From the sequence record NC_070989.1: a DNA stretch of 64,000 nucleotides; one strand, 5' to 3'. Source of the stretch: Escherichia phage vB_EcoP-CHD5UKE1. Within the stretch, counting starts at the first letter, position 1. Each line of letters starts with the position of its first letter. A program made the translations under genes and the position numbers. Under the pieces are notes generated by a model that worked only from the letters and a program-made list of their open reading frames with translations, ran no database searches and was not told the origin of the DNA. Below are positions 41,316-52,910 of the stretch, one piece after another.

Positions 41316-41529
41316 GAGGTTCTACCTTAATGCCTTTGATTTTTACATAATCAGCAAGCACGTTGTTGATCACCGTTGGGAAAGGAACCTCAACCTGTGT
41401 TTCAAGTACTTGACCAATACCAGCTTGCATCCACTTCTGGATTGCACGAAGGTTATCACATCCTGTGCTCGTCATCGGGATACGTCGAGTAGTTACAACG
41501 TTATCCAGCATCATCTTACGAATTTCCAT
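41296..41529 (-). CDS. small hypothetical protein (77 aa)
   Basis: ORF-track ORF; tightly packed between the amidotransferase fusion and ATP-grasp genes. Confidence 0.5.
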   Translation of the reverse strand: MEIRKMMLDNVVTTRRIPMTSTGCDNLRAIQKWMQAGIGQVLETQVEVPFPTVINNVLADYVKIKGIKVEPHVKSGS

Positions 41530-41531
41530 AC

Positions 41532-43562
41532 TTAACCTCTATTCAATGAACATTTAGGAGAATTACAATAAACTTGATTCATAGAACCAAGCGTACAACT
41601 TTCAGCATCGCGCCACGGAATCTGCTTAAAACACTCTGAGCAGTATCCGAGGGTTGACCACATGGCTTTGGTGAAGTCAGTGCTTCGGTTTCCGTCGAAG
41701 CTGACAACAGTTTTGCGGAGAGCTGTTCGTGATTCAGGAAACACACCTGCTTTCTCAGCAGGTTCCTCCTTTTTTGGCTTAGTTGAGATTGCAAAAATAC
41801 TGTTGCTACGTTTCTCAACATAAGCATCAACAACATCTTCCAGAGTTATGCCTGTCTGTTTCGCTGAGGAAGGTAATACAGTCATACGACCAATCATATC
41901 TTCAGTTACACGTAAAGCAAACTCAGGACGACGGGCGTTTGTTGTATCTGTTGCTTTAATCCATACATAACCATCTTTGATCGTAGCATTAGATACTTTC
42001 TTCTTTACTTCTACAGCGCAGACTTTACAGATATCTTCACCACGAAGACGACTAAGTTCATCATCGAACTCATTCTCTGTTTTAACTTCACCGCAGATTT
42101 CACAAACACCAATAGGAGTTTCCTCCTCTTCTTCCTCTTTAGGTTTAGTCAAACCTTCCAGACATTCAGGATGCCAGTAGCATTGATATGCGAAGACTGC
42201 TTTAGGTGCATCTTTCCAATCAATGTGTTTGTCACAACCACCACAATCACCATGAGAGTGTGCTTCCCAGAATTTACGAGTGATAGTAACGCCATTCTTG
42301 TTGACGAAACTATCATTCATATCAAAAGGGATATCATCATCGAAGTCAGCAGTAGTTGACTCAGGCTCCTTTTTCTCCAGAGATGGGTCAACAAAATGAC
42401 CTGCTGTGATCACTAAACGAACCATAGCATTAACTTCGGAGATGCAGGATACTGTCCCACGGTAAACAATTTTAGGGTCTTTCAGGGCATCCTGATAAGC
42501 CTTAATGTCTACGTTATGAACATCACCTTCGATATACTCTTGAGACTTCTCATCGTAGATATAACCAATCATCTTACCACGAGAAGGAACAGCACCAGCA
42601 GTTGCATAAGGAACAAACTCATGCGGAGTGATTTCCACAGTCATATCTCGGCGAATGTCAATGTTTCGATCGCTTGCGATTTTGTTTTGACTTACCACTG
42701 CGTTTCTTCGACGAACGTCTGCCGCTGTCACTCCCGGCTTCGTGTCGTAAGGATTGCTTGTATTGCTTTTTGAGGAACTTTGATAGTTGCTTTGGCTGTA
42801 GTTGTTCGAGTAATAACTGCCCCAACGATTGGCTACCGTAAAAACCGGAAGCTCGTGGGCGACCTCTTCAACCAGAGTCATGCTGTTGTTTGACATATCA
42901 AAGATATATTCTGTACCAACTTTACATTCAAAATGCTCATCAATACGGTTCTTGTGAGATCTAGAACGCTTCAGAATCCACATCAACATGTCTTCTTCAG
43001 AAGCACCAAACCAATCTCTGTTACAACGTGCGAGGTGGAATGGACGCTCTTCGTTACGGATGATATGAAGACGGTTATCAGAAGCATCATGCCAGATTAA
43101 GGTGAAAGCACCATCCAGCTTTTGAATAGTCTCTGCTGCACCAATAGTGTTAATAGAGTGGCAGATGTTCTCACTGTCTACCTCGAAGTTTTTGCTGTCA
43201 GGTAACAGATCTTGGTCCATCAAGGTTCCATTATGAACCAGAGTGATGTTACCATGTTGGAAAGGATGGGCGTTCTTGGCGTTAACTGCACCTTTCGTTG
43301 CATGACGACTGTGACCAACAATCCATGAAGGTGCTACAGTGTAAGCTGTTTCACCAGTGGTGTACTTCTTGTACTCATCTTGTAGGATGAATGCGAAAGA
43401 AGGAAGAGCTTCTTTATAAGTGAAGACTTCCTTAGTACTTTTACGCTGACCAAAGATACCGGAGGAATGTTGTCCTCGGAATACTCCAGCATAAAAGAGT
43501 TGGTTAAATACGTCTAAATCAGTGCTTGACAGATTACCGCCAGCTAATACGATGCCACAAAT
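41532..43562 (-). CDS. class-II (Ntn) glutamine amidotransferase-like domain fused to a Cys-rich multi-zinc-ribbon C-terminal region; non-AUG (ATT) start inferred
   Basis: In-frame extension upstream of the ORF-track ORF (41532..43223) encodes (I)CGIVLAGG...RGQHSSGI...GHSRHATKG...NAHPF...LVHNGTL, the N-terminal-nucleophile Cys signature. A stop lies 2 codons upstream of the Cys; AGGTGG sits 7 nt upstream of ATT-TGT. Confidence 0.55.
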   Translation of the reverse strand: MCGIVLAGGNLSSTDLDVFNQLFYAGVFRGQHSSGIFGQRKSTKEVFTYKEALPSFAFILQDEYKKYTTGETAYTVAPSWIVGHSRHATKGAVNAKNAHPFQHGNITLVHNGTLMDQDLLPDSKNFEVDSENICHSINTIGAAETIQKLDGAFTLIWHDASDNRLHIIRNEERPFHLARCNRDWFGASEEDMLMWILKRSRSHKNRIDEHFECKVGTEYIFDMSNNSMTLVEEVAHELPVFTVANRWGSYYSNNYSQSNYQSSSKSNTSNPYDTKPGVTAADVRRRNAVVSQNKIASDRNIDIRRDMTVEITPHEFVPYATAGAVPSRGKMIGYIYDEKSQEYIEGDVHNVDIKAYQDALKDPKIVYRGTVSCISEVNAMVRLVITAGHFVDPSLEKKEPESTTADFDDDIPFDMNDSFVNKNGVTITRKFWEAHSHGDCGGCDKHIDWKDAPKAVFAYQCYWHPECLEGLTKPKEEEEEETPIGVCEICGEVKTENEFDDELSRLRGEDICKVCAVEVKKKVSNATIKDGYVWIKATDTTNARRPEFALRVTEDMIGRMTVLPSSAKQTGITLEDVVDAYVEKRSNSIFAISTKPKKEEPAEKAGVFPESRTALRKTVVSFDGNRSTDFTKAMWSTLGYCSECFKQIPWRDAESCTLGSMNQVYCNSPKCSLNRG

Positions 43563-43641
43563 TTTCTAATCCACCTGAAGGGTAAACCCTTTCATCTAAT
43601 TAACCTTTAAATTGTGCCCCTTTATCAGAGGCACTCATTGA

Positions 43642-52834: not shown

Positions 52835-52910
52835 TGGTCGGGACGGAAGGATTCGAACCCTCGTAAGGCGAGTTAGAAGCTCGCTGCCTGTTCCACTAGA
52901 CTACGCCCCG
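52835..52910 (-). tRNA. tRNA-Arg (anticodon UCU), 76 nt with encoded CCA
   Basis: Cloverleaf folded by hand: acceptor CGGGGCG/CGTCCCG (one G-U), D-stem GTCT/AGGC, anticodon stem GCGAG/CTCGC with loop CTTCTAA, T-stem GAGGG/CCTTC with loop TTCGAAT, discriminator A, CCA. Confidence 0.8.

Follow-up and report, generated by a model that had tools for sequence, protein, structure and literature searches.

The genome of Escherichia phage vB_EcoP-CHD5UKE1 (sequence record NC_070989.1) raises the question of where translation of a glutamine amidotransferase begins when the reading frame that encodes it offers no canonical start codon ahead of its catalytic residues. The window analysed is a stretch of 64,000 nucleotides (nt) of this record; it belongs to the genome of a phiEco32-like podophage (Kuravirus, Gordonclarkvirinae), and the gene, a homologue of phi32_83, is located on its minus strand (Table 1). 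The 661 bases around the predicted start are 99.7% identical to phage Bas91, the closest relative, and 97.9% identical to phiEco32. On the minus strand an in-frame stop codon TAG (43568-43566) is followed by AAA (43565-43563), ATT (43562-43560) and TGT (43559-43557), AAA being the sole codon other than ATT between the stop and the Cys codon. With the Cys, the codons that come next (GGC ATC GTA TTA GCT GGC GGT) read CGIVLAGG, and the frame remains open to the stop at 41534-41532. An earlier note on this DNA had described the TAG-AAA-ATT-TGT arrangement and 113 codons without a canonical start; both were found on the minus strand and in the open reading frame (ORF) listing, where the TTG at 43223 is the first ATG, GTG or TTG 3' of the TAG and the start-less codons extend from 43562 to 43224. 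The window has 38 stop-to-stop ORFs of 150 codons or more; in the amidotransferase ORF 114 codons precede the first canonical start, the next largest value being 27 and the median 4.5; a gap of 114 codons exceeds chance within the window. Of the alternatives raised by the note, initiation at AUU is the best supported, by relatives with ATG-TGT at this position, by conservation of the codon in 97 of 97 records, by the ratio of non-synonymous to synonymous substitution (dN/dS) and by the annotation of phiEco32.

Table 1. Features of the amidotransferase gene and its leader, in positions of the window
Feature	Position	Strand	Basis
Amidotransferase coding sequence (CDS; phi32_83 homologue)	41532..43562	-	676 codons + stop from ATT; translation
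Predicted ATT (AUU) initiation codon	43560..43562	-	position of ATG in MCGIV relatives; invariant in 97 records; start in EU330206
TGT, predicted codon of the catalytic N-terminal Cys nucleophile	43557..43559	-	C1-G2 invariant; aligns to GFAT1 Cys; PHROG position 2
Rest of the start-less N-terminal half of the amidotransferase domain	43224..43556	-	R28-G29, GHSRHAT, NAHPF, HNG; dN/dS 0.035-0.075
Shine-Dalgarno sequence AGGTGGA	43570..43576	-	7 nt 5' of ATT; duplex with 16S 3' end -5.9 kcal/mol
Spacer TTAGAAA, 7 nt, holding the in-frame TAG (43568-43566)	43563..43569	-	sequence
Hairpin AAGGG-TTTA-CCCTT adjoining the Shine-Dalgarno sequence on its 5' side	43578..43591	-	-5.3 kcal/mol
Ultra-conserved leader block TTTAAAGG...ATTTGTGG, 57 nt	43555..43611	-	identity across records; single copy
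Upstream ORF MKGFTLQVD-stop (ATGAAAGGGTTTACCCTTCAGGTGGATTAG), 9 sense codons, in frame, stop 3 nt before ATT	43566..43595	-	kept in BUCT695 as MKGLTLQAD-stop
Terminator-like hairpin GUGCCUCU-GAUAA-AGGGGCAC	43614..43634	-	between amidoligase stop TAA (43644-43642) and leader; predicted fold

The start-less segment contains the part of the protein that would carry out catalysis. The protein matches phrog_4736 (E 3e-201), the Pfam family GATase_6 over residues 76-176 (E 1e-14; 55 bits vs a cut-off of 27), a match which spans the TTG at residue 114, and GATase_7 (27.4 bits vs a cut-off of 25). Three PHROG profiles place the Cys at profile position 2, i.e. right after Met. In an alignment of nine phage homologues (the window protein and eight from other phage groups), the residues C1, G2, R28-G29, GH.R.AT, NAHPF, N110-G111 and D128 are invariant, and these we take to be the nucleophile, glutamine-site and oxyanion set of class-II amidotransferases; R28-G29, N110-G111 and D128 presumably correspond to Arg26, Asn98-Gly99 and Asp123 in GlmS numbering. 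A search of the PDB with the single sequence gave no matches; a search with the profile of the alignment did, to GlmS (E 4e-10) and also to PurF and AsnB, with profile position 1 falling on the Cys of human GFAT1 and the GlmS alignment taking in GH.RWAT, NAHP and HNG. The hallmark class-II N-terminus that had been read in the start-less codons is one on which Pfam, PHROG and the alignment motifs agree. With a Cys right after the start, glutamine-site and oxyanion residues, and a hidden Markov model score above the cut-off, the product is predicted to be a class-II (N-terminal nucleophile) glutamine amidotransferase.

For the 112 codons between the Cys and the TTG, comparison of Kuravirus with Suseptimavirus and Nieuwekanaalvirus gave a dN/dS of 0.035-0.075, and synonymous sites between the genera were saturated (proportion of synonymous differences, pS, 0.70-0.77). 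These substitution patterns indicate strong purifying selection on the start-less codons, and hence that the segment is translated; because the catalytic residues lie within it, translation most likely begins at the ATT. The C-terminal 422 residues of the protein matched no Pfam family, for which reason it is not considered a GlmS, and the database label ‘L-glutamine-D-fructose-6-phosphate aminotransferase’ is unsupported for the phage protein. CxxC pairs are present in these C-terminal ~420 residues (41535-42800, minus strand; HGDCGGCDKH...YWHPEC, CEICGE...CKVC and CSEC...CNSPKC), and their spacing suggests zinc ribbons.

Relatives place a conventional start at the same point. ATG-TGY-GG (MCGIV/MCGLV) occupies the aligned position in Proteus phage P59, Salmonella phage 7-11, Cronobacter phages GAP52 and A24, Vibrio phage Vp_R1, Aeromonas phage LAh_6, Pseudoalteromonas phage HP1 and Pseudomonas phage PaP3, which are drawn from Grimontviridae, Lahexavirus, Zobellviridae and Bruynoghevirus. 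The alignment to orthologues that the earlier note had proposed as a check thus finds MCGI at the same position, and from this comparison the Kuravirus ATT would be a one-base variant of an ancestral ATG. Using tblastn, 300+ phage homologues align from query residue 1 onwards, which is the Cys. The claim that this Cys must directly follow Met is overstated for the enzyme class; for this family it holds in so far as the start codon abuts the Cys codon in every relative examined. ATT is present in all 97 phage records that contain the leader, as well as in five IMG/VR contigs, so that the locus combines an AUU where homologues have AUG, a Shine-Dalgarno (SD) sequence at functional spacing and full conservation of the codon.

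The ATT start call is not itself new, being implicit in the CDS coordinates of the phiEco32 GenBank record (EU330206). Of the 128 CDS in that record, 112 start with ATG, 13 with GTG, two with TTG and one, gene 83, with ATT, which is the sole non-canonical start annotated in this 2008 record; SU10 and the Bas phages follow suit, and the start and length of the CDS in the window are shared with the annotated CDS of phiEco32, SU10 and Bas91. Gene 83 (phi32_83, ABY52884.1 / YP_001671828.1, ‘glutamine amidotransferase’) is the same gene with no substantive difference: over the 240 residues that begin at the Cys, identity to the phiEco32 protein is 100% in IMG/VR locus L026, the CDS length (2031 nt), leader and ATT start are identical, and both phages have the gene in a cluster, characteristic of such phages, with Amidoligase_2, COOH-NH2 ligase and ATP-grasp enzymes. 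No paper discussing or testing the ATT start of gene 83 was found in the literature searched, which did not extend to Savalia 2008; a search on ATT/AUU starts combined with phage or amidotransferase gave nothing relevant, and no functional study of the amidotransferase gene cluster was found. As had been foreseen in the earlier note, automatic gene callers truncate the gene, with annotated starts 10 codons late in ECBP2 and SU7, 45 late in KBNP1711 and 37 late in Pseudomonas phage O4, while most of the matching phage records have no feature annotated over the leader. The first canonical start differs among ECBP2, SU7 and KBNP1711, i.e. no downstream start is conserved.

We consider it likely, on the sequence comparisons above, that initiation is directed by the SD to AUU 43562 with the initiator tRNA and that the Met is then removed, which exposes Cys1. 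A 30S subunit anchored at the SD would pair initiator fMet-tRNA with the AUU, after which deformylase and methionine aminopeptidase would strip the Met, as in ATG-started relatives; the mature N-terminal peptide without Met expected from an AUU start is CGIVLAGGNLSSTDLDVFNQLFYAGVFR. An SD is indeed present where the earlier note had indicated AGGTGG 7 nt from the ATT; the gap is 8 nt for AGGTGG itself (43576-43571) and 7 nt only for AGGTGGA. Its register is the same as that of YAGGAGGAU in 15 other leaders with AUU or AUC (AUY) starts. The ATT-TGT junction also creates an overlapping UUG in the +1 frame at an SD spacing of 8 nt, opening an 8-codon ORF (MWHRISWR-stop; 43534-43560, minus strand) that could compete with the AUU; in ECBP2 this short ORF is not conserved.

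Use of AUU or AUC is widespread in the family. Homologues were gathered from two overlapping IMG/VR scans (308 and 321 relatives, the best 80 of each being inspected) and from phage records, giving 164 with a sharply defined Cys codon. The codon before the Cys is ATG in 116 of these, ATT in 29, ATC in 12, TTG in six and GTG in one, ATT and ATC together accounting for 25%. Clustering at 70% protein identity puts them in 26 of 92 clusters, and clustering at 50% in 7 of 27; they are scattered across the neighbour-joining tree and interchange with each other between lineages. Read 5' from the ATT or ATC, 23 of 29 non-redundant leaders reach the upstream stop with no canonical start in frame. Cellular glmS, a phylogenetically narrow control, has ATG-TGT in 79 of 79 enterobacterial genes. 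In PMC5499595, AUU, AUC, AUA and CUG are given as 0.004-0.024% of annotated starts, with infC and pcnB the only E. coli genes named there.

The ATT/ATC starts tend to share a leader design in which a hairpin of 5-6 bp ends at the first SD base (typically YAGGAGGAU), followed by 7 nt and AUY-UGY-GG. In 17 such leaders the SD-to-start segment aligns without gaps, and the stem sequences all differ. A hairpin of at least 5 bp abutting the SD is found in 18 of 29 ATT/ATC leaders vs 7 of 91 ATG leaders (Fisher 7e-9), local minimum free energy (MFE) is -4.5 vs -0.2 kcal/mol (p 2e-9) and the SD duplex -7.6 vs -5.9 kcal/mol (p 3e-6), p-values that overstate independence in that the sequences are related. 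The comparison used ATG leaders as controls. A 7-nt spacer occurs in 22 of 29 ATT/ATC leaders and in 20 of 91 ATG leaders. When only intergenic distances of at least 25 nt are considered the hairpin contrast remains (14 of 21 ATT/ATC vs 2 of 26 ATG leaders). By local folding energy gene 83 ranks 8th of the 128 phiEco32 genes. Nine leaders searched in Rfam gave no match at E values up to 1, and a metagenome scan with TTAGAAAATTTGYGG, at 15 nt too unspecific a query, returned 120 loci, none of them an amidotransferase. The sequence GGAGGA-UAG/UAA-N4-AUY was seen in many of the AUY leaders (L061, L081, L084, L104, L108, L112, L118, L121, L129, L131, L137 and L159). In L084, L129 and L137 the UAG or UAA is the true stop of the upstream gene, which ends GGA GGA TAG/TAA 4 nt before the start; in the others no ORF ends there.

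The relatedness of the sequences weighs against the proposed SD-directed initiation and the role of its hairpin, as do several further points. The crude hairpin criterion is also satisfied by 24 of the 128 phiEco32 genes, and the Kuravirus SD, at -5.9 kcal/mol, is merely average among phiEco32 genes (median -6.0). In the MFE fold of the Kuravirus leader the SD is paired with the 5' hairpin region (GGUUUACC/GGUGGAUU, -6.1 vs -5.3 kcal/mol for the simple hairpin), and because of this predicted pairing free access to the SD is not guaranteed. The SU10 homologue has been observed by mass spectrometry, with nine peptides (PMC4281155), and the mass in the SU10 proteomics table, 63.8 kDa, is that of the TTG-start model, whereas an ATT start predicts 76.1 kDa. 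Because the table lists the TTG-model mass, N-terminal peptides of the SU10 protein were apparently left out of the search. Finally, any regulatory purpose of the AUU, be it sensing or throttling through initiation factor 3 (IF3), is one that we infer by analogy with infC and pcnB.

Comparison of close relatives indicates that the design can be gained or lost. The leader of Pseudomonas phage O4 (L184) consists of AACCTC-GTT-GAGGTT, CGGAGGA, a 7-nt spacer and ATC, while PA11 (L185) and TC6 (L186), with a protein 99.5% identical to that of O4, have an unrelated leader and a TTG start with GGAGGTG. The 37-codon-late CDS start of O4 in RefSeq excludes the catalytic Cys. Similarly, the ATT-started L159 equals the TTG-started L155 plus an inserted hairpin and SD. 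Hairpin, SD, spacer and AUY start accompany the gene in several unrelated phage groups, and these sequences suggest that they are gained and lost together, as a single unit. Within the literature searched, the recurrence of AUU/AUC across the amidotransferase family and its link to the hairpin-SD-7 nt module appear to be new.

In Kuravirus the leader is conserved to an unusual degree. With a 62-nt query that contains the leader block (43551-43612), 67 of the 97 phage records match at 100% identity and 95 at 95% or more; aligned representatives of other genera differ in one synonymous change, GGC/GGT, following the Cys codon. Among three E. coli phage genera the flanks on either side are 60-80% identical, whereas the block between them is almost wholly so. 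The block is also 92% identical in Aeromonas phage BUCT695, in which the amidotransferase is just 53% identical and groups with those of ATG-started Crifsvirus phages. There the loop is changed from TTTA to TTAA, the SD from AGGTGG to AGGCGG and the AAAGG of the upstream ORF (uORF) to AAATG, while ATT, TAG and hairpin stem are unchanged. Neither a 5-bp stem nor a 9-residue peptide explains the fixed loop and wobble positions; the fixation may be due to a protein-binding operator, overlapping signals or horizontal spread. The leader resembles that of GAP52 and A24 with an insertion of ~17 nt.

Other roles for the block were considered and set aside. A mobile cassette present in several copies, such as the PeSL elements of T4-type phages, is not borne out, the block being single copy within the window. 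An SD-sequestering alternative helix as a conserved switch was rejected on the weakness of this helix in BUCT695 (-2.3 kcal/mol). A promoter was likewise discarded, there being no sigma-70-like site on the coding strand and TAATTAGAT being a poor match to the gp36 promoter of phiEco32, tAATGTAtA (PMC8948821). The motif TTTAAATGTAAA (core AATGTA), which resembles the core of this promoter, was noted 10-25 nt 5' of the amidotransferase SD in Grimontviridae-type leaders (L007, L008, L009, L015, L017, L027 and L030); the Kuravirus equivalent is degenerate (TTTAAAGGTTAA, 43611-43600). In addition, TTAGAAAAT lies in the Kuravirus SD-start spacer (43562-43570, minus strand) and recurs 25-35 nt 5' of the start in several environmental leaders and that of PA11 (L098, L090, L108, L155, L159 and L185), which may be chance in A/T-rich sequence.

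The in-frame uORF pointed out in the earlier note is present (43595-43566), and coupling to it is the first alternative to be weighed. According to this explanation ribosomes would start at AUG 43595, melt the leader, terminate at the UAG and reinitiate 3 nt on at the AUU, de novo initiation at the AUU being negligible. All Kuravirus-type leaders, and that of BUCT695 too, have an intact uORF, its AUG in Kuravirus is preceded at 8 nt by AAAGG in an A/U-rich context, and a ribosome translating it would open the helix that hides the SD in the MFE fold. The layout of stop, 3 nt and AUU is also that of the thrS-infC junction (UAA-GGU-AUU vs UAG-AAA-AUU in the phage), where reinitiation was about equal to de novo initiation in the reporters described in PMC3592434. 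However, BUCT695 has AAATG in place of the SD of the uORF, and its SD-sequestering helix is weak, as stated above. Among the ~28 other AUU/AUC leaders there is mostly no ORF ending near the start, a few having an upstream gene stop 4 nt before the AUY, and AUY genes have longer intergenic spacers (median 34 vs 9 nt), where coupling predicts the opposite. Comparison with GAP52/A24 suggests that ATGAAAGG is what remains of the SD region of the ancestor, moved away by the ~17-nt insertion, and the invariant wobble positions place the constraint on the leader at a level other than the uORF peptide. We therefore regard obligatory coupling as quite unlikely; the resemblance to thrS-infC stands, and uORF coupling may contribute in Kuravirus, but it is not general among AUU/AUC-started relatives.

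Readthrough of the UAG is very unlikely. Translation from AUG 43595 would give MKGFTLQVD-X-KI-Cys..., with a 12-residue propeptide removed autocatalytically as in Bacillus subtilis PurF. Propeptide-bearing class-II amidotransferases exist, B. subtilis PurF removing an 11-residue propeptide, and UAG followed by A is a comparatively leaky stop context; furthermore, both lineages with the uORF have it in the reading frame of the main ORF. Against this, TAG recoding or a suppressor tRNA was ruled out: the sole tRNA in the window is a tRNA-Arg (anticodon TCT; 52835-52910, minus strand), and TAG is the ordinary stop of 14 phiEco32 genes. A conserved N-terminal extension occurs in none of the relatives, in all of which the start codon directly adjoins the Cys, and the 23 of 29 AUY leaders mentioned above lack any in-frame upstream start. 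Both uORF substitutions in BUCT695 are non-synonymous (F to L and V to A), and readthrough would leave the SD 7 nt before the AUU without purpose.

That the sole product starts at TTG 43223 or ATG 43220 (563 amino acids, 63.8 kDa), the upstream 113 codons being the untranslated remnant of a decayed domain, has next to no credibility. It is the model given by ORF callers, with which the SU10 table mass agrees; this mass, however, is a computed database value and no measurement of the N-terminus. A remnant is incompatible with 113 stop-free codons at the low dN/dS reported above and saturated synonymous sites, the Pfam domain spans the TTG, all catalytic residues are kept, and the differing first canonical starts of ECBP2, SU7 and KBNP1711 leave no conserved downstream start. 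A sequencing or assembly error hiding a true ATG, or an indel restoring an ATG-started frame, which the note had also raised and which has the rarity of ATT starts alone in its favour, has a probability of practically nil and is refuted by 97 phage records, produced in many laboratories and on many platforms, that agree on the ATT and its leader, by the IMG/VR contigs with this leader and by AUU/AUC in dozens of unrelated homologues.

With initiation at the AUU retained as the likely reading, the known systems closest in start-codon use are two E. coli genes. As described in PMC5499595 and PMC3592434, AUU and AUC are rare starts that IF3 discriminates against, and infC starts with AUU or AUC in all bacteria; the phage gene is like infC in its AUU (AUC in some species) conserved across relatives, in the stop, 3 nt and AUU after a preceding frame, and in the IF3 sensitivity to be expected. 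It differs in that its product is a metabolic enzyme, a predicted amidotransferase and not IF3, and for this reason it lacks an autoregulatory loop. Unlike infC, about a quarter of the phage family uses AUY and lineages switch both ways. The phage AUY leaders carry a hairpin and a strong SD. The second gene, pcnB (poly(A) polymerase I), is similar in that AUU limits an enzyme harmful in excess, a ‘throttle’ (PMC5499595), whereas it is a single host gene and the phage feature is a recurrent, exchangeable leader module on a gene family. As an enzyme, the phage protein resembles GlmS, PurF and AsnB in its N-terminal Cys nucleophile, in the R-G, GH.R.AT, NAHP, HNG and D.E motifs and in its GATase_6/7 matches; it departs from cellular GlmS in its C-terminal part and in its start codon. 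By analogy, a weak, IF3-discriminated AUU could result in low or IF3-responsive synthesis of an enzyme that would otherwise waste glutamine, and the hairpin might keep the SD single-stranded, stabilise the 30S complex or the mRNA, or be bound by a regulator.

Around the gene, the terminator-like hairpin 5' of the leader shows compensatory arm changes (GGGCGC/GCGCCC-type in ECBP2 and SU7, GGGGGC-GAAA-GCCCC in GAP52 and A24) and has no clear U-tract; in record WFI101126 a terminator is annotated inside the matched 661 nt. Directly 3' of the amidotransferase are two small genes (41299-41529 and 41094-41315, minus strand), one of them matching DUF7195 (E 5e-17), and both are kept beside the amidotransferase in 7-11, P59, GAP52 and BUCT695.

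A wider proposal, which is tentative and which we hold to be possible rather than probable, is that the hairpin-SD-7 nt-AUU/AUC leader is an exchangeable translational control cassette, placed time and again by phages of several families on their amidotransferase gene, through which synthesis tracks host IF3 status or a phage RNA-binding regulator. If so, infC would be joined by a second natural system whose non-AUG start codon itself acts as a regulatory sensor, and the cassette would explain the fixed 57-nt Kuravirus leader and its 92% sharing with an Aeromonas phage whose protein is 53% identical. For annotation, gene callers restricted to ATG, GTG and TTG remove the catalytic Cys in roughly one sampled phage lineage in four, with several RefSeq records affected, and the truncated ‘aminotransferase’ entries describe proteins that would be unable to work. 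Conserved AUU/AUC starts are very rare, infC and pcnB being the only ones known in E. coli, and the amidotransferase family provides a natural, comparative and easily testable system, which could show how phages use weak starts, possibly together with IF3 discrimination, to adjust the amount of a glutaminase that could be wasteful.

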